Part shown: piece by piece, positions 22,251 to 52,656 of the stretch
Numbering within the stretch: position 1 is the stretch's first letter
Layout: every line of letters starts with the position of its first letter
Origin: Candidatus Firestoneibacteriota bacterium
GTDB taxonomy: Bacteria; Oederibacteriota; D2-FULL-39-29; JBBTED01
Reading direction: 5' to 3'
DNA length: 64,000 nucleotides
Assembly (NCBI GenBank): GCA_038042445.1
Contig: JBBTED010000018.1
Location: forward strand, 33,419-97,418
Notes under the pieces: model-generated
The model's database searches: none
The model's input: the letters and a program-made list of their open reading frames with translations, nothing else
Told to the model about the DNA's origin: nothing
Program-made: the position numbers and the translations under genes

Positions 22251-23888
22251 ATGTTATCCAAAATTCCAACAAGAATCCTAATAATTGATAATAATCAAGT
22301 CCAAAACGAATTATATTCTAAGTTAAAAAATAAAGGTTATGAAGCAATAGTTGTTTCTAATTCTGATGAAGGGATAAAAACAATAAAAGAGAACAAATTT
22401 GGTGTAATTATTATTAATACAAAGATAGTAGACAAAAAAACTATTAGCGTAATGAGAAAGATAAAAGAAATGGACTCCAGAATAGAAAGAGTTGTAATTT
22501 GTAAGAATACTAAAGATGCAAAAATGGAATATTTTGACCGAATTATTAATAAATCTATGAATGTTGAGGATGTGGTTGTTATAATAGAAAAAACATTAGA
22601 AAAATACCAATTGAAAGAAATGGTTGCTATGTATGAAAGAACGATGGATGTTTTTTCAACTTTAGAGTTCAATGAGTTGCCGAAGGTTATTATTGATTCT
22701 ACTGTAGAAGAATTGAGAGCTGATGATGCTTCTTTAATGCTTTTTGATGATAACAAAAAACAACTATATATTGTTGATTCAAATGGTTTATCTAAAGAAA
22801 TTATAAGTGCAACCAAAATGTCTGTTGGTGAAGGAATATCCGGGTATGTAGTAAAAAATAGGAGACCACTGCTTCTAATAGATGGTTTAGAAAATGATCC
22901 AAGATTTAAACATATAAAACAAAAAGGTGTGCAAAGGAAAAATCCTATAACATCTTCTATTGTTGTGCCTTTGATAAAAAATAATAAAGTATTAGGGATT
23001 TTAAATATTAATCGTAGAAATATTATTGAGCATTTTACTGAGCATGATTTACATAAGGCAAATACAGCTGCTTCTTTGATAAGCGTTGCAATTGAAAATG
23101 CAAAGATGCATTCTCATATTAAGAAAACCGGGGAACAGGAATTATTGAAAGTCCATGATGAACTTCAAGAAGCATCTGAAAAGATAAGACAGATGCAGGT
23201 GCAACTCATTAGAGAAGAAAAGTTTTCCTTGCTGCATAAATTGACTTCATCTCTTGTGCATCAATTACGTACTCCTTTAAGTATAATTGATTTATCAGCT
23301 CAGTTTTTAAAAAAAGAAATTCAAGGTTCAGAAAAAATCATTTCAACTTTAAATACTATACAAAGAAATATACAACGTGCTAGTGATATTCTTCAGGATA
23401 TGTTTGAGATGGTGCTTATTAAGGCTGAGACAATGAAATTTGAACGGTGTAGAATAGGAGAGATACTGGAAAAAGCAATAGAAATAATGCAACCAAAATT
23501 AAATGGAGCAGGAGTTAATGTTAGAATGAAATGTGCAAAAGAAGAATTGCAATACATAAATATAAATAAACATTATTTGGAGCATGTGGTTGTAAACTTA
23601 ATTTCTAATTCAATAGATGCTATGTCTGAAGGTGGAGAAATAAATATTGACTTAAGTGTAGATCCAAAAAGCGAAAAAATTGTTATGACTTTTGTTGATA
23701 CAGGTAAAGGTGTTAAAGAAGAACATTTAAAAGAATTATTCACTCCTTTTTTTACAACCAAAGAAAAAGGTATAGGACTTGGGCTTTTTACAGTATTACA
23801 AATTATTGAAGCTCATCGTGGCGATATTAAAGTGAAAAGTGAATTAAATGTAGGAACAACATTTATTATTTCCCTTCCAATTAAGTAA
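22251..23888 (+). CDS. Cytoplasmic histidine kinase: degenerate receiver, GAF, HisKA, HATPase
   Basis: GAF (ASLML, GEGISGYV, VPL...LGILNI); H-box HQLRTPL; N, G1, F and G2 boxes; the receiver-like N-terminus has N in place of the phospho-Asp. Confidence 0.88.
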   Translation: MLSKIPTRILIIDNNQVQNELYSKLKNKGYEAIVVSNSDEGIKTIKENKFGVIIINTKIVDKKTISVMRKIKEMDSRIERVVICKNTKDAKMEYFDRIINKSMNVEDVVVIIEKTLEKYQLKEMVAMYERTMDVFSTLEFNELPKVIIDSTVEELRADDASLMLFDDNKKQLYIVDSNGLSKEIISATKMSVGEGISGYVVKNRRPLLLIDGLENDPRFKHIKQKGVQRKNPITSSIVVPLIKNNKVLGILNINRRNIIEHFTEHDLHKANTAASLISVAIENAKMHSHIKKTGEQELLKVHDELQEASEKIRQMQVQLIREEKFSLLHKLTSSLVHQLRTPLSIIDLSAQFLKKEIQGSEKIISTLNTIQRNIQRASDILQDMFEMVLIKAETMKFERCRIGEILEKAIEIMQPKLNGAGVNVRMKCAKEELQYININKHYLEHVVVNLISNSIDAMSEGGEINIDLSVDPKSEKIVMTFVDTGKGVKEEHLKELFTPFFTTKEKGIGLGLFTVLQIIEAHRGDIKVKSELNVGTTFIISLPIK

Positions 23889-23895
23889 TACTTAT

Positions 23896-25506
23896 ATGCC
23901 TACCATTCTTATTGTTGATGACGAAAAAGATTTTTGTAATTCCCTTTCTGATTTACTTCAAAGTGAAGGATATGAAACTATAAGTGCATTTGGAGGCAGA
24001 GAAGCTATTTTCATATTAGAAAACAAATCTATAGATTTAGTATTTTTAGATATTAATCTTCCTGGAATGAAGGGAATTGAAGTTTTGGAGAAAATTAAAA
24101 ATATAGAAGAAAGTCTACCTGTTATAATGCTTACAGGTTATGGAGAGATAAAATCAGCTGTTGACTCAATGAAAAAAGGAGCCTTCCATTACCTGACCAA
24201 ACCATTTAACAATGACGAGTTGTTAATTGTGATTAAAAAAGCTATTGAAATTAAAAAATTAGGCAGAGAGGTTTATTTACTTAAAGAAAGATTACAGAAG
24301 CATGAAGAAAAAACAAAAATTATTTGTAAAAGCGAGAAAATGGAAAGGATGCTTGATGAAGTGAAACGCGTTGCACCAACGGATATGACAGTAATAATTC
24401 AAGGTGCTTCTGGTACAGGAAAAGAGTTGATTGCAAGATTTATTCATGAACTAAGTAAAAGAAAAACAGGCCCATTTATAGCGATAGATTGTGGGGCATT
24501 GCCTGAAAATTTAGTTGAGAGTGAACTTTTTGGTTATGAGAAAGGTGCTTTTACAGGCGCTGACAAGGTGAAGCCTGGACATTTTGAACTTGCAGATGGG
24601 GGCACTTTATTTCTTGATGAAATTAGTAACTTATCACAAACTGTTCAAATGAAGTTGTTGCGTGTTTTGCAGGAAAAAAAAGTTCAACATCTTGGAGATA
24701 AAAAAGAAATAGGGGTTGATATTCGTATAGTTGTTGCAAGCAATATAAATCTTGATGAACTAATGCCCAAAGGTCTATTTCGTGAAGATTTATATCACAG
24801 GTTAAATGAATTTACTATTAATTTGCCGTCACTCAAGGAAAGAAAAGAAGATATACTAATATTAGTTGAACATTTTTTGAAACAAGCCAATTGTGAACTT
24901 AGCAAGAAAATCAAAGGTGTTGCTCACAATGCAATGGAAATTCTCAGTGAGTACAGTTGGCCTGGTAATGTGCGGGAGTTAAAAAATACTATTAAAAGAG
25001 CAGTATTATTAACAGAGGGAGATATAATTCTTCCGGAGCATATTAAATTGACAGATAATGCTTTGTCACATAAAATCTCCCTTAATCCCCCTTTGCTAAA
25101 GGGGGAAATTTCCTTAAAACAGATGCTTAATGCAATTGAGAGGGAATTGCTGATAAAAGCTTTAATGCAAACGAATTATCATAAAAGTAAGGCATCAAAA
25201 CTTCTTGGAATAGATAGAAGTGTATTGTCTGATAAAATTAAAAAATATAAAGTATCTTCATCGAGTTTTTTAAAAAATTTCAGATATACAAACAATTTAA
25301 AAATAGGTAGTAAACATAGTCTTAAAAAAATAATTGATGATATAGAAAAACAAAAGATTACTGATGTTTTAAAAGAAGTAAATTATAAAATAGCCCAAGC
25401 ATCAAAAATTCTTAAAATCACAAGAACAGATATTTATTACAAAATCAAAAAACATAATATAACATTACCTATTGCAAATAAGTCTGTTGTCAGGCATCCT
25501 GCCTGA
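23896..25506 (+). CDS. Sigma-54-dependent response regulator (NtrC family) with two C-terminal Fis-type HTH domains
   Basis: REC (VDDE, FLD, KPF), Walker A GASGTGKE, GAFTGA, LFLDE, WPGNVREL; two HTH_8-like repeats. Confidence 0.93.
   Translation: MPTILIVDDEKDFCNSLSDLLQSEGYETISAFGGREAIFILENKSIDLVFLDINLPGMKGIEVLEKIKNIEESLPVIMLTGYGEIKSAVDSMKKGAFHYLTKPFNNDELLIVIKKAIEIKKLGREVYLLKERLQKHEEKTKIICKSEKMERMLDEVKRVAPTDMTVIIQGASGTGKELIARFIHELSKRKTGPFIAIDCGALPENLVESELFGYEKGAFTGADKVKPGHFELADGGTLFLDEISNLSQTVQMKLLRVLQEKKVQHLGDKKEIGVDIRIVVASNINLDELMPKGLFREDLYHRLNEFTINLPSLKERKEDILILVEHFLKQANCELSKKIKGVAHNAMEILSEYSWPGNVRELKNTIKRAVLLTEGDIILPEHIKLTDNALSHKISLNPPLLKGEISLKQMLNAIERELLIKALMQTNYHKSKASKLLGIDRSVLSDKIKKYKVSSSSFLKNFRYTNNLKIGSKHSLKKIIDDIEKQKITDVLKEVNYKIAQASKILKITRTDIYYKIKKHNITLPIANKSVVRHPA
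25086..25106. repeat. CCCCT-family palindrome embedded in frame in the activator gene
   Basis: TCCCCCTTT-GCT-AAAGGGGGA, the same stem as the intergenic copy at 18881; read as ...NPPLLKGE... Confidence 0.65.
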
Positions 25507-25562
25507 CAAATTATATGATTATGAATATTTCATGTCCATATTGTGTCAAATATAACCACATA

Positions 25563-25601
25563 GCTGTAAAATTTTACAGCATTTAGCTGTATTATTTTAC
25601 A
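25563..25601. promoter_or_regulatory. Tandem upstream activator sequences (TGT-N8-ACA x2)
   Basis: Perfect palindrome GCTGTAAAATTTTACAGC (25563-25580) and a second copy GCTGTATTATTTTACA 23 bp downstream, about 80-115 bp upstream of the -24 box. Confidence 0.7.
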
Positions 25602-25676
25602 TATTTGGGTTAAATATTTTCATCTCTTAAAACCCCTTTGTTTTATTAGAGTTTAATTCGCATTTTCTATGTAATA

Positions 25677-25693
25677 TTGGCACGAAAATTGCA
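25677..25693 (+). promoter_or_regulatory. Sigma-54 (RpoN) -24/-12 promoter
   Basis: TTGGCACGAAAATTGCA matches TGGCAC-N5-TTGC with exact GG-N10-GC spacing, directly downstream of a bEBP gene. Confidence 0.88.
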
Positions 25694-25706
25694 TTATATA
25701 ATAATC

Positions 25707-27119
25707 ATGGTAAAAATTACAAAATGGGGTAGGGGTAGAGACGTATTGCAATGCTTTTCTACATTTATAATTTTATCATTTTTTTCTTCAATTGGTTATG
25801 CTGATTTTGAGGATCTTGGTGTTGGGGCAAGATCATTTGGAATGGGTAATGCTTTTTCTGCATTGGCAAATGATGCGAGTGCGATTTATTATAATCCAGC
25901 AGGACTTACTAATATTAAAAATGCTCAAATAATGACTGCTTATGACAGACTTTACCTTGGACTTTCTGATAAAAGTATTTTAGGGGATGGATTTGTATCG
26001 GTTGTTTCTCCTCTTGATGAGGTTACTGGTATTGGAATAAGTTATGTAAATTTTCATCTTGTTAATTATTATCAGGAACATACGTTTGTTCTTTCTTATG
26101 GCAATAAGATATTTTCTCAGTTGTCTGCCGGTATAAATGTTAAAGGTTTATCCAGAGGTTTAAGTGAAGATATCTATACAAAAGTTGACCCATTATTTTT
26201 GGAAAAAGGGTATACAAAAACAAATTTTAGTTTTGATACAGGTTTGCTCTATAGACCATTTCCAAGTTATTCATTTGCACTTACAGCTTATAATATAAAT
26301 CAACCGGATTTAGGTTTAAAAGACAAAGATATTGTTCCTATGAGTTTAAAATTAGGTTTTGCGTATCGTTATCATGCAAGCGATTTTGTTGTAGATTTTG
26401 CATATACTAATAAAGATTGGGATGTATATTTTGGAACTGAGAACTGGTTTTTTGAAAGATGTTTTGCACTAAGAGGCGGTGTTAAAACTGGAAGCAGAGC
26501 AGACAATGATTTGAGTGTTGGAATCGGATATAATTCTGGAAACATACAGTTTGATTATGCAGTTCAATATCCATTAAGTGGAATAAAAAATACTTTTGGT
26601 TCACATCGCATTTCTTTTGGAGTGAAATTTGGAGATGTGCTTCCGGAGTCAGATGATGAATTCGGATATATTCCTATGGTACCAAAAGAAGAAATTGAAA
26701 AAATCCAAAAAGAAGCAGAAGAGTCTGCACAAATGGTTCAAAAACTAAAAGAGGAGATTGAAAACTATAAAAAGAATTTAGAAGCCCTATCTGCAGAAAA
26801 TGAAAAAAATAAAGAAAAAGAAGCAGAAGAATTAACAAAAAAAATTGAGCAATATAATAAAGAAATGACAAAAGCTCTAAAATCTGAAGTAGATGCAAGA
26901 GAAAAATTAAATAAAATAACTGTAAAAAATACAACATCTATAAAGGTAGATAAAAATACTTATGTAGTTGAAAAAGGTGATACTTTAAAATCTATAGCAA
27001 TAAAGTTATATAATGATGAATCTCGGTGGGTTAGTATTTATAATCTTAACAAAGATAGAATTAAGCAAGGGATTGTTGAGTCTGGGCAGATTTTGATTTT
27101 ACCTGAGGAGAGGAAATGA
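25707..27119 (+). CDS. PorV/PorP(SprF)-like outer-membrane beta-barrel fused to a coiled coil and C-terminal LysM
   Basis: Signal peptide; GVGARSFGMGNAFSALANDASAIYYNPAGL hatch motif; alternating beta strands ending HRISFGVKFG; LysM YVVEKGDTLKSIA...GQILILP; exact start uncertain. Confidence 0.8.
   Translation: MVKITKWGRGRDVLQCFSTFIILSFFSSIGYADFEDLGVGARSFGMGNAFSALANDASAIYYNPAGLTNIKNAQIMTAYDRLYLGLSDKSILGDGFVSVVSPLDEVTGIGISYVNFHLVNYYQEHTFVLSYGNKIFSQLSAGINVKGLSRGLSEDIYTKVDPLFLEKGYTKTNFSFDTGLLYRPFPSYSFALTAYNINQPDLGLKDKDIVPMSLKLGFAYRYHASDFVVDFAYTNKDWDVYFGTENWFFERCFALRGGVKTGSRADNDLSVGIGYNSGNIQFDYAVQYPLSGIKNTFGSHRISFGVKFGDVLPESDDEFGYIPMVPKEEIEKIQKEAEESAQMVQKLKEEIENYKKNLEALSAENEKNKEKEAEELTKKIEQYNKEMTKALKSEVDAREKLNKITVKNTTSIKVDKNTYVVEKGDTLKSIAIKLYNDESRWVSIYNLNKDRIKQGIVESGQILILPEERK
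25735..25762. repeat. Degenerate GTAG...CTAC REP-like palindrome
   Basis: GTAGAGACGTATTG/CAATGCTTTTCTAC imperfect inverted repeat at the 5' end of the barrel gene. Confidence 0.55.
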
Positions 27120-30100
27120 ATAACAGGTTAGCGGTTCTAAAAATATCCAATGTTATTGTAGCCGCAGAGCGAAGCTCTGCTAAAAAAGTAGTTGCAAGGT
27201 TAAAGACAGCAAAGCTTACGCTTTGCAGCTACATAAATCATATCAAATATATGAGTTTGTTGAATTTTAGAATGGTTAATCTATTACCTATTGCTTTTAT
27301 TTTACTATTAACGGGCCAGGTTTTTGCAACAAGCAGAACAATGAGCGGTACCGTATACACGGATGAGGGAGTGACTAATATTGGTTCTGGCAAAAATATG
27401 GCAATATCAGTTAATGGTGGTGTTGCAACTACTTTTGTAACAGGAGCAAATGGTGTTTATTCAGTAGCTGTAAATGTTACTACTAATGACAAAATATGTG
27501 TTTACTTAGATAATGAAACAGAAAAAGCTACTTTAGTTACTATAATTCTTGATGCTGACTTAAGTGGATTTAATTTGTACCAAAATCATTTAATTTTGCG
27601 TAAAGAAACAGGTGGTGCTGGAATTAACAATACTGATTTATCAGGTGCAGATAATGGTGATGCTGATATTCTTTATAATGTAAGTGGAGCTAATTTAACT
27701 GTTAATGCAGGAGTTGAATTGTATGTTTGGACAGGACATACTTATGCGTCTGATGGTAATATTAATGCTGATGCAATAAAAATTAACGGGATTTTTACTA
27801 ATACGACTGCAGGTTCAATAATTACTTGTGATGATGCAGGAAGTATTACTGTGAATGGAACTTGGACATTAACTGGAGGTGTAGGCAATTTAATTTCTTT
27901 AAAGTCTGATTTAGCAGGAAGTCAGTTTGATGTAATTAATAACGGTACAGTAAATTTGAGTTATGTTGATTTAAAAGATTGTAATGCTTCTTCTTCGATT
28001 ATTGTGACTGATGGAAATGATAGTGGAAATAACACATACGTTATTTTTCAGCCTGCTGTATATGATGGTGCAGTGTTAACAGGAGATGGTGCTGGAAGTA
28101 ATTCAGTATCTATTGATTCAATAAGTGGTGTTACAACAGGTGTTCAGATACTTTGCTTTAAAATCAGTAATCCTGCGAGTACGGGAAATCAGGCAATAAA
28201 AATAGATCAGTTCACAATACATTTAGATGGCTCAAGTACAGCAGTAATTACTAATATTGCAGAAATTGCATTATCAGGTGCAGTAACTTCAACAGTTACT
28301 ACTCCTGTTTCTAATGATATTACCTTTGGGACTCCTAATGTAGGTTTTGATGGTGGCATATTGAGTGTTTCTAATAATACTACTTCTTCTGATATTGTTG
28401 TGAAAATTAAATTAAAAACTACTTTAACTGCTACAGAAACTCAATTCTGGAAATTCAATGTTGATGATGATGATGTTTCAGAGTCAAATTTGACATCAGA
28501 TATGATGGGTACAACTGGAGTAGATATAGCTGGTTCAAGTTGTGCATTATCAATTGTTGCTACGAAGTTAGTATGGACAACGCTTCCTGCAGACACCAGA
28601 ATAGTAGACGTAAGTGATGAAGTAGTGAGTGGGTTAGTATGGCAGACACAGCCTGTAGTAAAGGCAGTGGATGCAAATAATAATGTAGATATAGATTCAG
28701 TAGAAACAGTAACATTAAGTTTGGTAGGTGGAGCAGGAACATTTGCTGGAACATTAACAGAAGGATGTGTAAGTGGAGTGGCAAATTTTGTTGGTAATGG
28801 AATAAAGTATACAGTAAGTGGAAATAATGATGGTGAAGGATTTGTCCTAAGAGCAAGTGGAGGTGCATTAACAACAGCAGATACAAGTGGATTATCAGCA
28901 GATGTAGTAGCAACGAAATTAGTATGGACTACAGTTCCAGCAGATAGCAGGAGAGTAGATGTAAGTGATGAAGTAGTAAGTGGATTAGCATTTGAGACAC
29001 AGCCAGTAGTAAAGCCAGAGGATGATGATAATAAAGTAGATGCAGATTCAACGCAAATAGTAACATTAAGTTTAATAAGTGGAGTAGGAACATTTGCAGG
29101 AACATTAACTAAAGCTTGTGTTCTTGGGGAAGCAAATTTCAGTAGCAATGGAGTAAAGTATACAGTATCAGGTAATAATGAGGGGGAAACATTTGCAATA
29201 AGAGCAAGTGGAGGTAGTTTAACAGCAGCAGATACTGGTTTATTATCATCAGATATAGTAGCAAGTCAGTTGGTGTGGACACAATCAGCAAGTCATAGTG
29301 GAGTACCGAATGGAGACATAATAAGTGGAGTAGTATTTAATACACAGCCAAAAGTGGAGACAAGAGATGCAGATAATAAGTTGGATACTGATTATGTGAG
29401 TTCAGTAGTTTTAAGTGAGACAGGTGCTGGTTTTTTAAGTGGCACAACATCAGTAGCAGCAGTAAGTGGAGTGGTAACATATACTGGGATAGCATATAAT
29501 GTGAATGCGGACCAGGAGAGTTTCACATTAAAAGCGGACAGTGGAAGTTTAACACAAGGGTCAGATACAAGTAAGGTGGCAGATGTAGTAGCAACGAAAT
29601 TATCTTTTACTGTCCAGCCACAAGAGACAGGGCAAGCAGCAAATACAATAGTATCAGGTAATGTATTTGACACACAGTCTCAAGTAGAAGCAAGGAATAA
29701 TAGTGATAAAAAGGATGTAAATTTTATAGATACAGTTACAGTAGTTGAAACAGGAACAGGTAGTTTAAGTGGAACAAGTTCAGTAGCAGCAGTGGCAGGT
29801 GTAGTAACATTCACTAATTTAGTATATACAGCGGTTGTAGACAATGAGATGTTTAAGTTAAGTGCAGATGATACTCCTGGAGGGCAGGAAGGAAATTTAA
29901 CCGGAACATTTGAGTCTGCGAATACAACAGCGAATGTCCTTGCAACAAAATTAGTGTTTGATGTCCAACCTTCATCAAGTGTAGTTATGAATATTGATGT
30001 GGTAATTCATCCTGTCCTTAAAGCTTTAGATGCAAATAATACAATAGATGTTAATAATACTGATACACTTACGATTAGTGCAGTATTATCAGCAGATTTG

Positions 30101-33049
30101 TCACCTGCCCCAGGAATTCTTACCATAACACCTTCTTCTGGTAGTAATATGATAAGTGGTAGTTGGACATCTACACTATTAAGACATAATACTCCAAATT
30201 TAATTAAGATAAAAGTTATTGGAAGTACTGTAGTTGGGCCTTATTATTCTAATGATATAAATGTACTTTTAGATACAACTTTACCATCTTCAATTATGGA
30301 TCTTAGTGCTTCTACAGGAGCTCTTGAAGGAGAAATAAATCTAACATGGACAGCACCAGGTGATGAGGGAAATAGTGGGACGGTTACAGGTTATCTTGTC
30401 CGATATTCAACAAGTCCGATAAATAATCAAACTGATTTTGATAATGCCACTACTTATACACAAAGTTGGTCACCTTTATCGTATGGTAATACTGAAAATC
30501 AAACTATTACTATGCCAGTAAATGGTGTTACTTATTATATTGCTATTAAAGGTTTTGATGAGGTGCCGAATTATGCTCCATCATTTAATACTACAGGCAA
30601 TAGTGCAGTATCACAAATAGATAGTGTGGCACCGTCTAACATAACTAATTTAGTTGTTACTACAGGTGCTTTGAAGAGTCAGCTTAATCTAAACTGGACA
30701 TCTGTTGGTGATAATGGAAATAGCGGGACAGCAACAAGTTATATTGTCCGATATTCTACTGCTCCTATTCTAAATCAGAATGATTTTAATAATGCATCAA
30801 TTTATGTTCAAAGTTGGACTCCTTTAGCAACAGGAAATGCTGAAAGTAAAGTTATTTCTGGGCTTCAATCAGGTGTTCTTTATTATGTTGCTATTGAAGC
30901 AAAAGATGAGGCTGGAAATCAAGCAGGTCTTTCTAATACAGCCAATGCTAATGCTACGACTCAGATTGATGTGGCACCACCTGCTGCTATTATAAATTTA
31001 GCTGCAACTACTGGTTTGCAACATACTCAGATAAATTTAACATGGACAGCTACAGGTGATGACCAGGATGTAGGAACAGCATCAAGATATATTGTCCGAT
31101 ATTCAACAAGTGCGATAAGTAATCAAACAGATTTTAATAATGCTAATACTTATGTGCAGAATTGGGTTCCATTATCAGCAGGTAATCTAGAAACCAAGAT
31201 ACTTGCAGGATTAACAGCTGGTGTTACTTACTATATTGCTATTGAAGCAGTAGATATCGAAAGTAAGCAGGGAGCTATTTCAAATACTACAGGTAATAGT
31301 GCAGTTGCTAAAAATGATATTACTGTTCCTAGCAATATTGGTGATTTAGTAGCTACTACTGGTTCAATTGAGGGAGAAATTAATTTGACATGGACGGCAT
31401 CAGGTGATGATGGAAATATTGGGACAGCTACGGGATATATTGTCCGATATTCAACAAGTGCGATAAGTAATCAAACAGATTTTAATAATGCTAATACTTA
31501 TGTTCAGAGTTGGGTTCCTTTATCAGCAGGTAATGTGGAAACCAAGACACTTACAGGATTAACACCTGGTGTTACTTACTATATTGCAATTGAAACAATA
31601 GACGAAAAACCAAATCAAGCAATTGATTTTAATAAAACTGGAAATAGTGCAATGGCTCAATTGGATGTTACCAAACCGTCTGCTATTACAAATTTATCTA
31701 CTTTTATTAGTGAAAATGATGAAAAAGGAGCAATTCATCTGACATGGACAGCATCAGGTGATGATGGAAATATTGGCACAGCTACAGGATATCTTGTTCG
31801 ATATTCAACAATCGCGATAACTAATCAAACAGATTTTGATAATGCAACTACTTATCAAAATACTTGGGTTTCTTTGCCTACAGGTCAGAAAGAAGAAAAA
31901 ACTATAACTGGTTTTTTGCCGGGTGTCCAGTATTACATTGCTATTGAATCAGTAGATGATAGAGGGAATACATCTGATTTATCTAATATTGCTGAAGGGA
32001 CTCCACGAATTGATTTGATTCCACCATTAGAGCCAATAGGTATAAAATGTGATTTTAATGCTTCTGGTTATTTTGTTATTAACTGGAAAGCACCAAATAG
32101 AAATGAAGATGATAGTGTTCTAAATGATTTATCTGAATATCATATTTACCGTACGGCTAATATTGATGGTGAATATGTATTGAAAAGTTCTGTATCTAAA
32201 GATACATTGAATTGGGTAGATATGGAAGTAACAACTACTACATCTGAAACATATTATTATATCATAAAGGCAGTAGATTATTTCGGTAATGAGAGTAAAT
32301 TATCAATGCAAATAAGTAATATAAATAAAGAAATTAGTATTGCTTTTAATGATGAAATTACTTTAAAATTACCTATAGAGATGAACAAATTGATTTATGG
32401 AGAATCTAATAAATATAAAGAAGACATTCGTTTTCAGTTAAAAAAGAAAATTGATGATGGAAAAAGAGTTTTAGGTAGTTATGAAATAAAAGCGATAAAG
32501 GAAAAAAATGGTGCAGAAATTAATAATTTCACTTTTGACAAACCAATTGAAATTGCTTTTAAATATAGAAATAATAGTAGAGCACAAATGTTCAAAGCTT
32601 CTTTTATTCAAGAGGACTTTAAACCTACGGTTTTTGTGCATAATGGAGTTGAGTGGGTGAAATTAGGTGGAAAAGTGGATAATAATTTAGAAAAAGTTGT
32701 TATAAAAACATCTAAGTTAGGAAATTTTATGCTTAAAGCTTCTGCTTCTTTAACTGAATTTACTATTGTTCAGATTACTCCTTCTAAAATATTTACACCA
32801 AATGGAGATGGACAGTGGGATGTAATTGAGTTCTACTTTGAAAATCCACGTGATACTTATGTTAATTCAACAAAAATTTTTGATATTACCGGAGCTGAAG
32901 TTTGCGATATGCAATTAAGCAGTACAGGTAATTCTTATGTTTGGGATGGAAAAAATAGAAATGGAGAAATTGTTTCTAATGGAGTTTATATTTACCAGAT
33001 AGAAGTTGAAGGTAAAGTTTTAAATGGCACTATAATAGTAGCAAAGTGA
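27116..33049 (+). CDS. Large secreted surface protein: Ig-like repeats, FN3 repeats and a T9SS-like (CHU_C/FlgD-type) C-terminal sorting domain
   Basis: Signal peptide ending VFA-TS; five ~110-117-aa repeats and five to six 116-aa FN3 repeats; C-terminus FTPNGDG.WD...IFDITG..V...WDGKN.NG..VSNGVYIYQIE; start is 27116 or 27251. Confidence 0.85.
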   Translation: MNNRLAVLKISNVIVAAERSSAKKVVARLKTAKLTLCSYINHIKYMSLLNFRMVNLLPIAFILLLTGQVFATSRTMSGTVYTDEGVTNIGSGKNMAISVNGGVATTFVTGANGVYSVAVNVTTNDKICVYLDNETEKATLVTIILDADLSGFNLYQNHLILRKETGGAGINNTDLSGADNGDADILYNVSGANLTVNAGVELYVWTGHTYASDGNINADAIKINGIFTNTTAGSIITCDDAGSITVNGTWTLTGGVGNLISLKSDLAGSQFDVINNGTVNLSYVDLKDCNASSSIIVTDGNDSGNNTYVIFQPAVYDGAVLTGDGAGSNSVSIDSISGVTTGVQILCFKISNPASTGNQAIKIDQFTIHLDGSSTAVITNIAEIALSGAVTSTVTTPVSNDITFGTPNVGFDGGILSVSNNTTSSDIVVKIKLKTTLTATETQFWKFNVDDDDVSESNLTSDMMGTTGVDIAGSSCALSIVATKLVWTTLPADTRIVDVSDEVVSGLVWQTQPVVKAVDANNNVDIDSVETVTLSLVGGAGTFAGTLTEGCVSGVANFVGNGIKYTVSGNNDGEGFVLRASGGALTTADTSGLSADVVATKLVWTTVPADSRRVDVSDEVVSGLAFETQPVVKPEDDDNKVDADSTQIVTLSLISGVGTFAGTLTKACVLGEANFSSNGVKYTVSGNNEGETFAIRASGGSLTAADTGLLSSDIVASQLVWTQSASHSGVPNGDIISGVVFNTQPKVETRDADNKLDTDYVSSVVLSETGAGFLSGTTSVAAVSGVVTYTGIAYNVNADQESFTLKADSGSLTQGSDTSKVADVVATKLSFTVQPQETGQAANTIVSGNVFDTQSQVEARNNSDKKDVNFIDTVTVVETGTGSLSGTSSVAAVAGVVTFTNLVYTAVVDNEMFKLSADDTPGGQEGNLTGTFESANTTANVLATKLVFDVQPSSSVVMNIDVVIHPVLKALDANNTIDVNNTDTLTISAVLSADLSPAPGILTITPSSGSNMISGSWTSTLLRHNTPNLIKIKVIGSTVVGPYYSNDINVLLDTTLPSSIMDLSASTGALEGEINLTWTAPGDEGNSGTVTGYLVRYSTSPINNQTDFDNATTYTQSWSPLSYGNTENQTITMPVNGVTYYIAIKGFDEVPNYAPSFNTTGNSAVSQIDSVAPSNITNLVVTTGALKSQLNLNWTSVGDNGNSGTATSYIVRYSTAPILNQNDFNNASIYVQSWTPLATGNAESKVISGLQSGVLYYVAIEAKDEAGNQAGLSNTANANATTQIDVAPPAAIINLAATTGLQHTQINLTWTATGDDQDVGTASRYIVRYSTSAISNQTDFNNANTYVQNWVPLSAGNLETKILAGLTAGVTYYIAIEAVDIESKQGAISNTTGNSAVAKNDITVPSNIGDLVATTGSIEGEINLTWTASGDDGNIGTATGYIVRYSTSAISNQTDFNNANTYVQSWVPLSAGNVETKTLTGLTPGVTYYIAIETIDEKPNQAIDFNKTGNSAMAQLDVTKPSAITNLSTFISENDEKGAIHLTWTASGDDGNIGTATGYLVRYSTIAITNQTDFDNATTYQNTWVSLPTGQKEEKTITGFLPGVQYYIAIESVDDRGNTSDLSNIAEGTPRIDLIPPLEPIGIKCDFNASGYFVINWKAPNRNEDDSVLNDLSEYHIYRTANIDGEYVLKSSVSKDTLNWVDMEVTTTTSETYYYIIKAVDYFGNESKLSMQISNINKEISIAFNDEITLKLPIEMNKLIYGESNKYKEDIRFQLKKKIDDGKRVLGSYEIKAIKEKNGAEINNFTFDKPIEIAFKYRNNSRAQMFKASFIQEDFKPTVFVHNGVEWVKLGGKVDNNLEKVVIKTSKLGNFMLKASASLTEFTIVQITPSKIFTPNGDGQWDVIEFYFENPRDTYVNSTKIFDITGAEVCDMQLSSTGNSYVWDGKNRNGEIVSNGVYIYQIEVEGKVLNGTIIVAK
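27158..27232. repeat. GTAG-type REP doublet inside the 5' part of the large ORF
   Basis: GTAGCCGCAGAGCGAAGCTCTGC and inverted GCAAAGCTTACGCTTTGCAGCTAC. Confidence 0.7.
28556..30270 (+). repeat. Five tandem intragenic Ig-like repeats
   Basis: VATKL-type starts at 28556, 28907, 29258, 29588 and 29939 (periods 351/351/330/351 bp). Confidence 0.8.
30272..32011 (+). repeat. Five tandem 348-bp FN3 repeats
   Basis: D..xP..I..L starts at 30272, 30620, 30968, 31316 and 31664; conserved LTWTA.GDDG..GTA..Y.VRYST. Confidence 0.85.
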
Positions 33050-33150
33050 CGCGAAGCGTCACTTCCGCATGTAGTAAGCGGGAATCCAGTGTCTTTTATT
33101 GGTAGTAGTACGCTTAGGCGGACGAAGTATGTAGTTGCCGATTTATCGGC
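33044..33150. repeat. Cluster of palindromic repeats (GTCA-type and GTAG-type)
   Basis: AAGTGACGC-GAA-GCGTCACTT hairpin; TTCCGC-ATGTAGTAA-GCGGGAATCCAG (same loop as 57472); GTAGTTGCCGATTTATCGGC. Confidence 0.65.
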
Positions 33151-33177
33151 ATATTGTTTTAGGAGGGGGATTTTAAA

Positions 33178-35058
33178 ATGTCTGATTTTAAATGGAAGTT
33201 TTCTGAACATCTGAAATTTGTGCCAAGATTATCAGGTGTAGAAAAAAACAAGATGGAAAAGACTACTGATATACAAAATACGATTAAACAATTGAGATTG
33301 AGTGAATTGCAAATGTTATATATAGAAAAAGTAGAGGAATCACGCAAGTTAATGGATAAAACAGAAGACTTAGTTAAGTTGATAGAAGAAAAAAATAATA
33401 ACTGGAATGACAAATTAGAATCATTAAGACAAAAAGAAAGTGAAATAAGTTCTTTGTCTGAAAGGTTAGAAACAAAAGAGAAAATTGCAGATAAATTTGT
33501 TGATGAGGTGAAATCTAAAAAAGATAAATTGGAGATAAATGCAGAAGAAATAAATAGATATAATAAAGAATTAGTATCGTTACTGGTAGAATTAAAAGGG
33601 AAACAGTATAGTAAAGAATTTGAGCAAATAGATAAACTTAATAAAGAATTGCGTCTATTAGCTGAGGAAAGAGATATAGCAGTTACGAGATGCGAAGAAA
33701 AAACACAGGAAGTTGAACGTGTTAGATGGGAGTTGCAGTCTTTAGCTATACAGTTTGAAGAGAGGGAGAAGAATTGGAATGAGAAAATTAAGATGTATGA
33801 GCCTGATAAGGAAAAGTTAGAGAAGCAGAATGCAGATAAAGGACAGCAGATAGATAGATTAAAAAAAGAATTGCAGGCATTGATAGAGGAGAGAAATATA
33901 CTAAATACCAATTACGAAGAAAAAATACAGGAAGTTAAACGGCTTAAAGATGAGTTGCATTTTTTAAACATACGGTTTGAAGAGAAAGAGAATAATTGGA
34001 GTGAGAATATTAAGTTATTTAGGCAGGAGCAGGTAGAATTAAACAGGCAGAATGCAGATAAAGGACAACAAATAGATAGATTTAATAAAAAATTACAGGC
34101 ATTAGCAGAAGAGAAAAATACAGTAAGTACGAAATATGAAGAAAAAGTAAAAGAAATAGATAGATTAAATAGTGAATTCAAAAAAACACTTGAAAGATTT
34201 AGGGAAAATGAAAAAGTAGGAGAAAAAAATAGTGAAGAGTTAAGGGATAAGAAAAGGGAATTAACATTAAAGGAACAAGAAATAAATCAACTTAAAGAAA
34301 AATTAAAGATATTAGAGGGAAAGAAAGATGTGGATGGGAAAATAAATGATACAAACGTTCAAGAAAAAACTAAACAAATTGAAGAAATGTTAAAAGTGGA
34401 AAGAGTAGTTATGAAAGAATTAATTTTTGGTGTTGTTCACCAAATACGTAATCCATTGGGAATAATTAGTACAAATACTCAATTCCTTTTGAAAAAGAAA
34501 AAATATAAAAAGGGTGAAGACAAATTATTGCAAGTGATTTTTAATACTGTTGAAAGTTTTAATAGGAAAATTGATATATTTCTTGAACTTGCCAATCCAA
34601 TAGAATTGTTTACACAGGTTGTTTCTTTAAGTAAGGTTTTAGATGGGATTTTTTCAATTGTTGAAGAAAAATGTAAAATGCAAAATATTAAGTTAATAAA
34701 AGGTTATCCTGCAGACTTACCTAAAGCAGAGGTTGACGCTAATAAATTGAGTCAGGCATTGCTTAATATTTTCTCCAATTCTTTGTTTGCTACTCCTGAG
34801 GGAGGTACTATTGAAGTAAATACACATTTGGATTTTGGAAAAAAAGAAGTTGCGATTAGATTTGTAGATAATGGTAGTGGAATTTCTCAAGTGTATATTG
34901 ATCAAGTAGGGATACCATTTTTTACCACAAAGAAAGACGCATTAGGATTGGGAATTTTTTCTGCAAAACGTATTATAATTTCTCATAAAGGGCATATTAA
35001 AATCGATACCAATTCTGACAAAGGAATAACTGTAACTGTATTTTTGCCATATTGTTAA
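33178..35058 (+). CDS. Histidine kinase with a long coiled-coil (74-aa repeat) N-terminus
   Basis: H-box HQIRNPL, N-box LLNIFSNS, DNGSGI, PFFTTK, LGLG; about 400 aa of heptad-rich sequence; no TM helix. Confidence 0.85.
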   Translation: MSDFKWKFSEHLKFVPRLSGVEKNKMEKTTDIQNTIKQLRLSELQMLYIEKVEESRKLMDKTEDLVKLIEEKNNNWNDKLESLRQKESEISSLSERLETKEKIADKFVDEVKSKKDKLEINAEEINRYNKELVSLLVELKGKQYSKEFEQIDKLNKELRLLAEERDIAVTRCEEKTQEVERVRWELQSLAIQFEEREKNWNEKIKMYEPDKEKLEKQNADKGQQIDRLKKELQALIEERNILNTNYEEKIQEVKRLKDELHFLNIRFEEKENNWSENIKLFRQEQVELNRQNADKGQQIDRFNKKLQALAEEKNTVSTKYEEKVKEIDRLNSEFKKTLERFRENEKVGEKNSEELRDKKRELTLKEQEINQLKEKLKILEGKKDVDGKINDTNVQEKTKQIEEMLKVERVVMKELIFGVVHQIRNPLGIISTNTQFLLKKKKYKKGEDKLLQVIFNTVESFNRKIDIFLELANPIELFTQVVSLSKVLDGIFSIVEEKCKMQNIKLIKGYPADLPKAEVDANKLSQALLNIFSNSLFATPEGGTIEVNTHLDFGKKEVAIRFVDNGSGISQVYIDQVGIPFFTTKKDALGLGIFSAKRIIISHKGHIKIDTNSDKGITVTVFLPYC

Positions 35059-35069
35059 ATAATTTATTT

Positions 35070-35101
35070 CTTCCCCTGATAAGGGGGAGATAGAGGGGGT
35101 T
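35070..35101. repeat. CCCCT-family palindromic repeat
   Basis: CTTCCCCTGATAAGGGGGAGATAGAGGGGGTT, near-identical to 61115-61147. Confidence 0.75.
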
Positions 35102-35105
35102 ATAA

Positions 35106-36329
35106 ATGTATAATATTCTTATTATAGATGATGAACAGGAGATGATTGATGCACTTAGAAATATTTTAGAGCAAGATGGATATACTGTTACTGCTACAAC
35201 TGATGGTGTAAGTGCATTAAAAAAAGTAGAAAACAATAATTTTGATGTTGTTTTATTAGATGTTCGCATTCCTGGTATGGATGGTATTCAGATTTTAGAA
35301 CAGATTAAAAAAACAAATAAAAATCTTCCTGTTATTATGGTTACAGGCTATGGAGATACAAAAACTTCAGTACAGGCAATGAAATTAGGAGCATTTGATT
35401 ATATTTCTAAGCCTTTTAATTATGAAGAATTAATTAATCTTATTGAGAAAGCTGTTCAAATGAATAAATTAGAAGGGAAATCTGGAATATATGAAAACCA
35501 ATTGACAAGGAAACCTGAAGGGGCTCGGGCAATTGAAAAGGAGAAAGAGAAAAAAATAGCTCAAGAAAGTGTGCCTTATATCAAACATAATCGAATCCAG
35601 TTGAAAGTAGTATTTGCAATTTGTTTGAGCGTAATAATTTTATCACTTGGTATTTTTTATTATTTGCAAATTTTTTCCGGCAAAACACAAATCTATTTGA
35701 CTACTTGTACTAATCCTTCTGCTATAACATGTGACAAAGAATATCTTTGGATAAATGACTGGGTTACAAATATAATATATAAACATAAACTAGTTAAACA
35801 GCTTCCTGTTGTAAAAAAATATAGCTTTAACAATTTACACCTAACAGGCATAGCATTAGCAGGGAATATGATTTTTACATGCGATATTGAAAATAAGAAA
35901 ATTTATAAGCATAATATTGATGATAACCTGACAATTATTGATACTTATCCTAGCCCTGGTATTAGTCCATCAGGTATTTTCTGGGATGGGAAATATCTTT
36001 GGTCATGCGATGCTGAAAGTGATAAGATATACAAACAATATTTTGACGGTAAAAATCTTGTTGTTATTGAAACATATCCAAGTCCTTCAACACATCCTAT
36101 AGGTGTTGCTTATTATAAAGAATATTTATGGTCTGCTGATGCTGATACAAATAAGATATATAAACATGAATTAGATAAAACTCTTTCAGTTGTAGACACG
36201 TATTATATACCTAAAGAAGAGGCATCTATTTCCAGTTTTACATTAATAGACGGTAAAATATGGGTTGTTACTGAAGACAATAATAAAGTATTTTCATATA
36301 GTTTATCACATATTATGAAGAATAAATAA
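35106..36329 (+). CDS. Receiver domain + TM helix + extracytoplasmic beta-propeller repeat protein
   Basis: Intact REC (IDDE, LLD, VTG, KPF); hydrophobic VVFAICLSVIILSLGIFYYL; five PSGI.WDGKYLW..D....IYK-type repeats. Confidence 0.8.
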   Translation: MYNILIIDDEQEMIDALRNILEQDGYTVTATTDGVSALKKVENNNFDVVLLDVRIPGMDGIQILEQIKKTNKNLPVIMVTGYGDTKTSVQAMKLGAFDYISKPFNYEELINLIEKAVQMNKLEGKSGIYENQLTRKPEGARAIEKEKEKKIAQESVPYIKHNRIQLKVVFAICLSVIILSLGIFYYLQIFSGKTQIYLTTCTNPSAITCDKEYLWINDWVTNIIYKHKLVKQLPVVKKYSFNNLHLTGIALAGNMIFTCDIENKKIYKHNIDDNLTIIDTYPSPGISPSGIFWDGKYLWSCDAESDKIYKQYFDGKNLVVIETYPSPSTHPIGVAYYKEYLWSADADTNKIYKHELDKTLSVVDTYYIPKEEASISSFTLIDGKIWVVTEDNNKVFSYSLSHIMKNK

Positions 36330-36371
36330 AGGAGAATCTGTCATTGCGAGAAAGATAGAAGGGAGAATATA

Positions 36372-37853
36372 ATGATCCAGTGTCCAAAATGCAAAACAGA
36401 AAATAATGACATAGCCAAATTTTGCCAAAACTGTGGAAGAAAGCTAGGACATTCTTCATCAGGGGTTTTCTTAAAAACAGTTATTGCGATAATATTGGTT
36501 TTGGCTATAGGATTTGGGGCGTACTATTTTAATGCGTCTAAAACTTTGCCCAGTCGTGCTGATTTAATGATTAAATCAACGGAAAAAAAATCAAAAGAAA
36601 TAGAAATAATTGGGATAAAGGAGGTTTTTCAGGAACAATTTAATGAGGGAAATAAATTGTTGCGGGAAGCTAAGGAATTATATTATGCCGGTAAATATAC
36701 AAAGGTATTGAAAACAGCAAAAAGAGCTAATGAAGTTATTGATAAAGTAAAATTAGGAATAAGAGATTTTGTTGATATTGAATATGGGCGATTATTTGTG
36801 GAAGGAGAAGAACAGATACAAAGTGGTAACTACGAAAAAGCACTTGAATGTTTTGAGAAAGCTATGGAATGTAGGAAAGGCGATATTCCATCTACAGGAA
36901 AAATAGAGCATTGTAAAAATAATCTTTATGAAATGTATTTTAAAAAAGGGCAGGAATATGTTCCGAATTTATTATGGGATGAGGCAATAAATGCGTATCA
37001 AATAGCGCTGAAATATAAACCTGATGACAAACAAGCAGAGGATGAATTAAAAATTGTGCAAGCAAAGAAGGAAGAAGCATATAAAATAGAGGAAGCAAAA
37101 GCAAAGGCAATAGCAGCAGCAGAGAAGAAGAAATATGAAAATATGGTATACATACCAGCAGGAGAATTTGAAATGGGAAGCAATGATTGTGTTGATGAGA
37201 AACCAGTTCATAGAGTATATCTTGACGGATACTATATAGACAAATACAAAGTAACGAATGAGCAATATGCGAAATTTTTGAATGAATGGGGAAAGACAAT
37301 AGACAGGAATGGCAATGAAATGATTGACATAGAAAATAGCGCAATATCAAACGAAGGAGAAAAATTTGTTATTCAATCTGGCTATGAGAAATACCCTGTT
37401 ATATATATAAGTTGGTATGGAGCCAATCAATATGCGAAGTGGTGTGGTAAAAGATTACCAACAGAAGCAGAATGGGAGAAGGCATGTAGTGCTGGAAGTA
37501 AAACAAAATATTGTTTTGGGGATGATGAAAATAAACTTGGTGAATATGCATGGTATAAAGATAATTCAGATGGACGGACACATCCAGTAGGAAAGAAGAA
37601 ACCAAACAAATGGGGATTATATGATATGCATGGTAATGTATGGGAATGGTGTTCTGATTGGTATGATGAAAAATATTATGAAAAGAGCCCTAAGGATAAT
37701 CCTAAAGGATCTAACACGGGGACTAGTAAAGTTCTTCGTGGTGGTACGTGGGATTTCATTGCTAATGATTGTCGGTCATCTTATCGCGGCAGCGGCACGC
37801 TGGTCAGCTGGGGCGATCTTGTAGGTTTCCGTTGCGTGCGAGTAGCGAAATAA
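36372..37853 (+). CDS. Zinc ribbon + TM + TPR + FGE-sulfatase (C-type lectin fold) protein; candidate DGR target
   Basis: CPKC...CQNC; one TM; TPR helices; IPAGEFEMG, RLPTEAEWEKA, GLYDMHGNVWEW, RGG.W, GFRC; lacks the FGE catalytic Cys pair. Confidence 0.88.
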   Translation: MIQCPKCKTENNDIAKFCQNCGRKLGHSSSGVFLKTVIAIILVLAIGFGAYYFNASKTLPSRADLMIKSTEKKSKEIEIIGIKEVFQEQFNEGNKLLREAKELYYAGKYTKVLKTAKRANEVIDKVKLGIRDFVDIEYGRLFVEGEEQIQSGNYEKALECFEKAMECRKGDIPSTGKIEHCKNNLYEMYFKKGQEYVPNLLWDEAINAYQIALKYKPDDKQAEDELKIVQAKKEEAYKIEEAKAKAIAAAEKKKYENMVYIPAGEFEMGSNDCVDEKPVHRVYLDGYYIDKYKVTNEQYAKFLNEWGKTIDRNGNEMIDIENSAISNEGEKFVIQSGYEKYPVIYISWYGANQYAKWCGKRLPTEAEWEKACSAGSKTKYCFGDDENKLGEYAWYKDNSDGRTHPVGKKKPNKWGLYDMHGNVWEWCSDWYDEKYYEKSPKDNPKGSNTGTSKVLRGGTWDFIANDCRSSYRGSGTLVSWGDLVGFRCVRVAK

Positions 37854-46427: not shown

Positions 46428-47174
46428 ATGATTTCTTTTATTGCATTTATTGGAGTTTTTTCTGTGATTGTACTTGTTCACGAATGTGGGCATTTTATTG
46501 CAGCTAAAAGATTCGGCGTAAAAGTTTATGAATTTTCCATAGGGTTTCCATTTGGCCCCCGTGTTTTTCTTTTTAAACATAAAGAAACAGAATTTACTTT
46601 GAGATTGTTTCCATTGGGTGGATTTGTGAGTTTTTCAAAAGAAGGTGATGAAAATACAGGGAATTTATTTGAAGTTTCTAATTTAAATCGTGCATTAATT
46701 GTTTCTGCAGGTTCTTTTTTTAATATTATTTTTTCCTTTATAGTTTTTACAATGGTATTTTTTATTGCCAGACATCTTAATTTTATTGATGCTATAGCAT
46801 TAACAGCTAAAACTATGGGAATAATATTATCCGGTACTATAACTACCATTTTAAATATTATTTCTGGAAAAGGTTCTATGGAAGCATTCATAGGGCCTGT
46901 AGGTATTGCTGTTATGGCAGGACAAGTAGCAAATAAAGGGATTTTAGATTTATTGTATTTTTCTGGTATATTAAGTATGAGTCTTGGAATAATGAATTTT
47001 ATCCCATTTCCTGCTTTAGATGGTGGACAGTTATTTTTACTTCTTATAGAGGCAGTTAAGAAAAAGAAATTGAGTTTAAAAACATATCAAATAATCAATT
47101 CTATTGGTTTTTTACTATTTATTCTTTTAACAATTATAGTAACTTATAAAGATATTATTAGATTTATCGCCTGA
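46428..47174 (+). CDS. Site-2 protease (M50, RseP-like) without PDZ domain
   Basis: HECGH, FSIGF, PLGGFV, GPVGI, NFIPFPALDGG. Confidence 0.9.
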   Translation: MISFIAFIGVFSVIVLVHECGHFIAAKRFGVKVYEFSIGFPFGPRVFLFKHKETEFTLRLFPLGGFVSFSKEGDENTGNLFEVSNLNRALIVSAGSFFNIIFSFIVFTMVFFIARHLNFIDAIALTAKTMGIILSGTITTILNIISGKGSMEAFIGPVGIAVMAGQVANKGILDLLYFSGILSMSLGIMNFIPFPALDGGQLFLLLIEAVKKKKLSLKTYQIINSIGFLLFILLTIIVTYKDIIRFIA

Positions 47175-47175
47175 A

Positions 47176-52652: not shown

Positions 52653-52656
52653 TTTT

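Follow-up and report, generated by a model that had tools for sequence, protein, structure and literature searches.

One copy of a repeated barrel-cargo gene pair, with predicted sigma-54 control, in a Candidatus Firestoneibacteriota genome

The 64,000-nucleotide stretch analysed here and termed the window (contig JBBTED010000018.1 of assembly GCA_038042445.1, positions 33,419 to 97,418; window positions are used below unless a contig or locus is named) carries side by side the genes of an outer-membrane barrel with a LysM domain and of a giant adhesin-like protein with a C-terminal sorting domain (CTD). Our analysis supports their reading as a cognate barrel-cargo pair, of the kind that serves type-B cargo in the system for type IX secretion (T9SS), in a genome outside the Bacteroidota. 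This reading, which an initial annotation made from the letters alone had put forward, rests on the CHU_C domain of the cargo, the PorV-like fold of the barrel, an adjacency shared by 121 of the 158 related loci, and a predicted interface between the two proteins. The pair is not unique, being one of at least 16 in its genome, and we consider it probable that it represents one regulated copy of a repeated surface-display pair of cargo and private barrel, working through the mechanism outlined further below.

The host is an uncultured groundwater bacterium with an assembly of 2.81 Mb in 181 contigs (90% complete). Its lineage and those of its relatives presumably lie outside the Fibrobacteres-Chlorobi-Bacteroidetes (FCB) group. 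The closest comparison genomes share its class, with none of the same genus, family or order in the collection searched, and a metagenome scan for near relatives yielded no long match above about 46% identity. In protein searches, which also returned a barrel (P0007) 60% identical to that of the window, the named relatives of the barrel are mostly Elusimicrobia-labelled; these appear to fall outside the window's own phylum of 99 genomes, as the two sets of loci have no sequence in common.

The barrel and its cargo

The barrel gene (25707..27119, plus strand, like all genes of the region) encodes a 14-strand PorV/PorP-like outer-membrane barrel followed by a pair of long helices and, at the C-terminus, LysM, as assigned by the PorV/PorQ profile NF033709, structural modelling and Foldseek. 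The AlphaFold model (predicted local distance difference test, pLDDT, 82) shows the 14 strands, with the helices at residues 327-408 and LysM at 418-466. Its top matches in the PDB are the PorV subunits of the Flavobacterium johnsoniae translocon, 6h3i_F (E 3.7e-12) and 8gl6_F, with PorV structures giving TM-scores of 0.62-0.64 (0.64 for 6h3i_F, target-normalised) at root-mean-square deviations (rmsd) of 4.4-4.8 Å; FadL structures score nearly as well in Foldseek, with a much worse rmsd. Across 20 members of the barrel family, counted at E 0.01, NF033709 matches all 20 (best E-value 8e-29), PorV 17, the PorP/SprF profile TIGR03519 nine and PF11751 four. The description as a PorV/PorP-like barrel-LysM protein therefore stands for fold and LysM, fails at the curated cut-offs of the hidden Markov models (HMMs), and is best narrowed to a protein nearer PorV/PorQ than PorP: by curated score it belongs to neither PorP/SprF nor PorV, and its working likeness to them is strong. 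Two paralogous barrels of the same genome, on contigs C96 and C160, do pass PF11751 (34.3 and 41.2 bits; cut-off 22.3), and each follows a CHU_C cargo gene. The homology is visible in existing annotation as well, since the NCBI pipeline already names some relatives of the barrel 'PorP/SprF' or 'PorV/PorQ family'. We propose that the barrel is the private anchor or carrier of its cargo, tethered to peptidoglycan.

The cargo gene (27116..33049) overlaps the stop of the barrel gene by 4 nt and encodes a secreted protein of 1977 residues with immunoglobulin-like (Ig) and fibronectin type III (FN3) repeats, recognised by the Pfam families fn3, CHU_C and FlgD_ig. Its sorting domain (32717-33046) reaches the final residue of the protein, and a signal-peptide-like segment lies at about 46-72, as judged by eye. 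CHU_C (PF13585, cut-off 27) scores 29.5 bits on the whole protein and 36.9 on its last 110 residues alone; in an alignment of the cargo domain with 30 relatives, CHU_C matches 31/31 and TIGR04131 30/31 sequences at E 0.01. The giant Ig/FN3 protein with a CHU_C-like sorting domain is thus borne out, and the domain is type-B-like.

Structure prediction supports binding of the CTD by the neighbouring barrel. Barrel residues 33-325 and the CTD were co-folded in three runs and set against three controls, giving interface scores (ipSAE) of 0.88, 0.87 and 0.89 as opposed to 0.02 for the best control. At least 97% of the predicted contacts are common to the runs, the partner is modelled with a pLDDT of 83 or more, and the predicted interface uses the loops of the barrel. 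When the tool was calibrated, 116 of the 157 solved complexes attained the co-fold mark, as did 2 of the 215 mismatched pairs.

Further evidence for the pair is its recurrence. Local HMMs find 28 barrels and 25 CTDs in the genome, and 20 of the latter lie no more than 15 residues from the C-terminus, the limit applied for counting a CTD as C-terminal. Cargo of this kind adjoins 16 of the 28 barrels on the same strand: in 11 pairs the cargo gene precedes the barrel gene, in four, including that of the window, it follows, and one barrel lies between two cargo genes. On contigs C112 and C11, two more pairs fall a few residues short of the C-terminal limit, and contig ends cut three barrels. The same picture emerges from the 158 related loci surveyed around barrels, 79 from genomes and 79 from metagenomes, where the open reading frame (ORF) immediately upstream of the barrel often ends in the CTD: this arrangement is seen in 61 of the 79 genome loci (76 of the 79 have upstream room exceeding 400 bp) and in 60 of the 79 metagenome loci (69 with such room). 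Of the synteny expected of the system, the adjacency of cargo and barrel and the downstream kinase and receiver-propeller pair considered below are borne out.

Three further observations concern the paralogues. Five barrel paralogues and seven genes for CTD cargo share one strand of an island of about 28 kb (C63:3561-31675); the same contig carries rpoN (52127-53557). At C155:14556-16145 (minus strand in L154:2556-4145) lies another pair in which the barrel comes before the cargo, with a C-terminal CsgG/FlgO-like domain in the place of LysM, and barrel relatives elsewhere bear TPR or OmpA tails. Given CsgG/FlgO-like, TPR, OmpA and LysM tails, the periplasmic tail seems to be an exchangeable module.

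The predicted sigma-54 switch and the neighbouring genes

Transcription of the pair is likely to be under sigma-54 control, a reading that we infer from the DNA upstream of it. Two genes precede the barrel. The first (22251..23888) encodes a cytoplasmic sensor kinase with Pfam matches to GAF (55 bits), HisKA (36.5) and HATPase_c (84.5), headed by a pseudo-receiver whose Response_reg score of 26.9 bits is under the Pfam cut-off and which, in our own reading of the sequence, is missing the acceptor Asp. It is presumed to be the partner of the second gene product (23896..25506), an NtrC-type sigma-54 enhancer-binding response regulator with a receiver domain (Response_reg, 106 bits), an AAA+ domain (Sigma54_activat, 230 bits) and two tandem Fis-type helix-turn-helix domains (HTH_8 in two stretches). 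This activator appears intact, with both GAFTGA and Walker A (GASGTGKE) readable. One HTH_8 domain is usual for NtrC-type activators; the two in tandem found here match two tandem sites upstream of the barrel.

These sites, GCTGTA-N6-TACA at 25563-25580 and 25586-25601, lie 23 bp apart and some 80-115 bp upstream of the promoter, and one is a perfect palindrome. A motif scan of the window gave three matches to the pattern (at the two sites) where 0.01 were expected, and the rest of the 2.81-Mb genome holds no further copy. That the enhancer-like sites are unique to the locus fits an activator dedicated to this one promoter. The promoter itself, TGGCACGAAAATTGCA at 25678..25693, was found by consensus search; the window has two copies of TGGCAC-N5-TTGCW where chance would give 0.07, and the second copy, inside the PtsI gene, is probably due to chance. 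With rpoN present in the genome (408 bits, above the cut-off), the sequence-level hallmarks of sigma-54 control are all there: consensus -24/-12 element, sigma factor, GAFTGA activator and upstream sites. The tandem enhancers and consensus promoter of the initial annotation are accordingly real features of the window, and its claim of induction by the adjacent enhancer-binding protein appears plausible. The genome encodes only five full-length sigma-54 activators and two fragments of such, and a sigma-54-type site directly follows three further activators.

The barrel probably starts at ATG 25707, preferred here since the TTG start listed at 25677 overlaps the promoter; a further TTG at 25746 has a purine-rich stretch ahead of it, but starting there would make the signal peptide shorter. 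A consensus scan marks a terminator-like hairpin with a T-rich tail (33136..33151) after the cargo gene and ahead of the kinase gene that follows. On account of this hairpin, we split the region after the cargo gene, with likely units of kinase and activator, of barrel and cargo, and of second kinase, receiver-propeller protein and possibly the last gene.

A second sigma-54 regulon seems to exist in the same genome. It looks like a set of four consensus promoters, TGGCACGA-N3-TTGCA, without an adjoining activator gene, which have tandem palindromes upstream in common, CTATGGAA-N4-TTCCATAG or close variants (contig positions C96:18951-24675, C160:425-6691, C36:24203-34520, C95:1616-2877 and C176:5160-6630; a separate palindrome copy lies at C95:5082). 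Two of the promoters drive the order Laminin_G_3 protein, cargo with CarboxypepD_reg and CHU_C, and PorP_SprF barrel, and one drives the gene of a protein with Ig repeats that exceeds 3336 residues. As two of the four promoters drive cargo-barrel operons, sigma-54 control of such pairs would recur in this genome.

Downstream of the cargo, the first gene (33178..35058; Pfam) encodes a histidine kinase with about 400 residues of N-terminal coiled coil, HisKA and HATPase_c; no hydrophobic segment was noticed by eye, and the protein is taken to be soluble. Its presumed partner is encoded next (35106..36329): a receiver domain (Response_reg, 125.7 bits), one transmembrane (TM) helix and a periplasmic propeller, for which the model (pLDDT 88) shows five blades. 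The propeller (35688-36329, residues 195-407) finds its best PDB matches in 3mbr, 2iwa and 3nol at TM-scores of 0.68-0.73 and 10-13% identity, and so resembles bacterial and plant (type-I) glutaminyl cyclases, a likeness of fold only. T9SS cargo of Bacteroidota is known for carrying pyroglutamate at its N-terminus, formed by a cyclase of unrelated type; judged by eye, the mature N-terminus predicted for the window's cargo is not Gln.

The initial annotation counted this kinase and receiver-TM-propeller protein as part of the module, and their synteny with LysM-type barrels in several other genomes agrees with it. Barrels of the LysM type form a minority, with 8 of the 79 loci from genomes and 7 of the 79 from metagenomes, and the receiver-propeller family comprises only 29 proteins in a large protein search. 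The two genes stand together at the loci L023, L025, L030, L032, L113, L114, L155, L169 and L183; L029 has the propeller gene downstream and on the other strand, and at L204 this gene has no kinase match within 6 kb. The pair also follows the barrel in the genome G001 (contig C36), and in G005, a relative of the same class, contig C123 shows a giant CTD gene, the coiled-coil kinase (39% identity) and the receiver-propeller gene (49%) in the order of the window, the contig beginning inside the giant gene.

Different is the case of the last gene (36372..37853), which encodes a zinc ribbon, a TM segment, TPR and a domain of the formylglycine-generating enzyme family (FGE-sulfatase, 213 bits). An FGE domain stands beside the barrel in none of the 79 genome loci and one of the 79 metagenome loci, and in neither L113 nor L114. 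We think that this gene is a neighbour outside the module, left out because of that frequency of 1/158, and its membership, claimed initially, is not upheld by synteny. Its description as a 'variable' lectin found no support in screens for template repeats and motifs either. A diversity-generating retroelement was considered and dismissed: the genome holds no near-identical template repeat of the 3' end, just paralogues at 66-76% identity, and a crude motif screen, made without a Pfam search for reverse transcriptases, gave no reverse-transcriptase-like ORF.

All seven ORFs between 22251 and 37853 have the same orientation and the domains first ascribed to them (ORF list, Pfam and NCBIfam). 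Their reading as a single seven-gene system does not survive, with the FGE gene not syntenic, the activator rare among relatives and the hairpin at 33136-33151 splitting the units. GC content across the region is low (0.29-0.37). It is flanked upstream by housekeeping genes (phosphotransferase system, MetK, AhcY, ABC permease) and downstream by an HMGL-like gene and a glycosyltransferase gene. Flagged elsewhere in the window, at 2235-6266 and 46428-48354, were an ORF of 1343 residues without a Pfam match at E 1e-5 and an M50 peptidase gene adjoining a radical-SAM/SPASM gene.

Export, mechanism and alternatives

What in this genome could export the cargo? Contig C87 encodes a SprA-like ORF of 1742 residues, which TIGR04189 matches in five colinear pieces, the best at 110 bits (cut-off 200). 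An Ignavibacteria-labelled genome has a canonical SprA, which with 606 bits served as a working positive control for the SprA search; the ORF on C87 is 24% identical to it (E 1.5e-75), and 28-33% identical to ORFs of 1735-1836 residues in four Elusimicrobia-labelled genomes. The SprA-like family is present in 92 of the 99 genomes of the phylum, above the cut-off in seven, and the barrel family in 97. Instead of a canonical T9SS in an FCB member, only this divergent SprA-like gene was found, so that from the expected set of SprA, PorK/L/M/N and PorU a translocon candidate emerged and the rest gave no match specific to them, in searches that lacked a positive control. At C87:24881-32498 (locus L100), the SprA-like gene has an overlap with the PF16949 'ABC_tran_2' gene upstream of it, which itself follows an ABC ATPase gene. 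An ABC transporter as the motor was nevertheless dropped as a candidate, the pairing with the SprA-like gene not being kept in the four Elusimicrobia-labelled genomes; a ComF-like gene downstream of the SprA-like gene is kept in three of the four.

Several points weigh against reading the locus as a regulated, T9SS-like display pair. First, the HMM tests are divided, as CHU_C passes and the cut-offs for PorP_SprF, PorV/PorQ and TIGR04131 are missed. The window's own barrel misses every curated cut-off, with NF033709 at 65.4 bits (cut-off 90) and no match to PF11751 at E 0.01 or to TIGR03519 at E 0.1, and TIGR04131 (cut-off 35) reaches 22.8 on the whole cargo and 29.0 on the CTD alone. Second, the barrel precedes the cargo here, whereas the majority of relatives have the cargo first. 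Third, complexes of PorV with a CTD have been solved (8gl6), and the co-fold result may mirror that likeness rather than prove binding. Fourth, in searches run without a positive control, the GldL, GldM and GldN profiles found no match in the genome, and the PorU profile NF033707 hit 21 ORFs through its C-terminal domain only (profile positions ~955-1094) with no peptidase body; GldK matched nothing but the generic FGE domain, at best with 70 bits against a cut-off of 350. If GldKLMN and the PorU body are truly absent, SprA-dependent export would have to do without its known motor. Fifth, a transcript start about 12 nt past the -12 element would leave ATG 25707 nearly leaderless. Sixth, an activator stands upstream of the barrel in only 2 of the 158 related loci (2/79 in genomes, 0/79 in metagenomes). 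Both, L021 and L031, come from one metagenome-assembled genome; at L021, a TGGCAT-N5-TTGCC site together with a TGTGTA...TACACA palindrome occupies the matching place, and the site of L031 is weaker.

The fourth point is softened by the behaviour of the profiles themselves. TIGR03517, TIGR03513 and PF12081 found nothing in ten genomes, including those intended as FCB-type controls (two Ignavibacteria-labelled, one Neomarinimicrobiota-labelled): the GldL and GldM models matched none of these controls, and GldN was run on this genome only. PF12081 was likewise matched in 0/17 genomes of the phylum to which the comparison genome G045 belongs. As the profiles also failed on their intended controls, the absence of motor and ring is not established.

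Starting from the observed domains, promoter and enhancer-like sites, synteny and predicted interface, we arrive at a mechanism whose functional steps are all inferred. The GAF kinase would phosphorylate the adjacent activator, which would bind the two locus-specific GCTGTA-N6-TACA sites and open the sigma-54 promoter, giving one transcript for barrel and giant protein. By analogy with type-B cargo and PorP/SprF of Bacteroidota, both proteins would cross the inner membrane via Sec, and the CHU_C-type domain of the cargo would dock on the extracellular loops of its own barrel; export would probably proceed through the genome's SprA-like outer-membrane protein, and the barrel would retain the adhesin on the surface. 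The periplasmic helices and LysM may pin the complex to peptidoglycan, one polypeptide thus doing the work of PorP and PorE. More speculatively, the soluble coiled-coil kinase might phosphorylate the receiver-TM-propeller protein, with the propeller modulating export or anchoring; this second pair would probably act after translation.

Three other accounts of the barrel and its neighbour have to be weighed. It could be a mobile PorV-type shuttle, which takes up its cargo at the translocon, passes it on or releases it, and uses LysM in assembly only rather than as a lasting anchor. The HMM and fold matches, nearer to PorV/PorQ than to PorP, suit such a role, as does the placement of the predicted interface on the barrel loops, where PorV has it according to the available sections of PMC10994853. 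A peptidoglycan-binding tail speaks against free diffusion, however, the 28 mostly cargo-linked paralogues are unlike a single universal PorV, and no PorU-type sortase body was found as recipient; we therefore regard a shuttle as unlikely.

Alternatively, the pair might be an export device independent of SprA, the barrel itself assisting the passage of its neighbour into or through the outer membrane in the manner of two-partner secretion. Such self-sufficiency would agree with the strict pairing of one cargo with one barrel, their genes often overlapping, and with the lack of a detected T9SS motor or ring, although the motor searches lacked a positive control. No 14-strand barrel of the FadL type is known to let large proteins through, though, and the SprA-like gene is about as widespread in the phylum as the barrels (92/99 and 97/99), which makes this proposal quite improbable. 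That the neighbours are functionally unrelated, a FadL-like uptake channel next to an ordinary FlgD/Ig-like module, is very improbable: FadL structures do nearly equal PorV in Foldseek score and, in the PDB, the CTD profile finds Ig domains of FlgD and C5a peptidase as well, but the adjacency in 121/158 loci and 16 in-genome pairs, the C-terminal position of 20 of the 25 CTDs and the wide gap between the co-fold and its best control all speak against it.

The reading as a cargo with its private, wall-tethered barrel can be extended, tentatively and with considerable doubt, into a broader scenario. Firestonebacteria-type and Elusimicrobia-labelled bacteria might run a stripped-down relative of the T9SS, consisting of a short SprA-like translocon and one private wall-tethered PorV/PorP-like barrel per cargo, without the PorKLMN motor-ring or PorU. 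In LysM-type modules, a dedicated 'inside-out' pair, the soluble coiled-coil kinase and the receiver with its periplasmic glutaminyl-cyclase-like propeller, might then gate export or anchoring from the cytoplasm.

Relation to known systems

Type IX secretion is described as exclusive to Bacteroidota in the portion of PMC12618676 available to us, and with the barrel family in 97 and the SprA-like family in 92 of 99 genomes, the families of cargo tag, carrier barrel and translocon would be core features of a candidate phylum outside that group. If the absence of motor, ring and sortase holds, it bears on which parts of the T9SS are ancestral and on which step needs energy. The barrel-LysM fusion offers a simple test case for the anchoring of cargo to the cell wall by PorP-type barrels, and the locus-specific sigma-54 switch a handle to induce a single pair at a time. 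As for precedents, of two papers combining Elusimicrobia or Elusimicrobiota with type IX, the excerpts consulted describe no such system, PMC12204202 dealing with unrelated topics and PMC7031533 having the term in its reference list only; a literature search listed no paper that links type IX secretion and sigma-54.

The closest parallel are the SprB-SprF pairs of F. johnsoniae (PMC12618676 and PMC9143113, each in part). As there, a large repetitive adhesin ending in a CHU_C/TIGR04131-type domain is encoded beside its own FadL-fold barrel, many such pairs occur per genome, and the barrel is proposed to carry the cargo and hold it at the surface; the excerpted sections report SprF-SprB as well as PorP-PorE-cargo complexes (PMC9143113) and five conserved motifs, A-E, in the type-B CTD that are required for secretion (PMC12618676). 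The published gene order in Bacteroidota, as given in the same part of PMC12618676, is type-B cargo gene first and porP/sprF second. Unlike SprB-SprF, the pair of the window has this order reversed and belongs to a host outside the Bacteroidota, its barrel is nearer PorV/PorQ and equipped with coiled coil and LysM, GldKLMN were not detected, and dependence on sigma-54 is predicted.

The anchoring that we propose resembles PorP-PorE-PG1035 of Porphyromonas gingivalis, where, in the accessible text of PMC9143113, a barrel binding a type-B CTD protein is linked to a peptidoglycan-associated periplasmic part. That part, PorE, is a separate protein, described as a lipoprotein that fuses several domains, the C-terminal one binding peptidoglycan, whereas in the window LysM is fused to the barrel itself. 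The best structural match to the barrel is PorV in the SprA translocon (6h3i, 8gl6), in which the CTD sits on the extracellular loops of the carrier (PMC10994853, in part). Unlike PorV, a single general carrier of type-A CTDs working with PorU, the barrels of this genome number 28 and mostly have one cargo each.

PorE is made up of TPR, propeller and OmpA parts. PorX/PorY provide two-component control of the T9SS, the output of PorX being a cytoplasmic enzyme domain, and PorX receivers are among the structural matches of the receiver domain of the window, at 35% identity. The downstream genes resemble this system as a kinase and a receiver with a non-DNA-binding output, encoded beside putative secretion parts; unlike in PorX, the receiver has as its output a propeller in the periplasm, which follows a TM helix.

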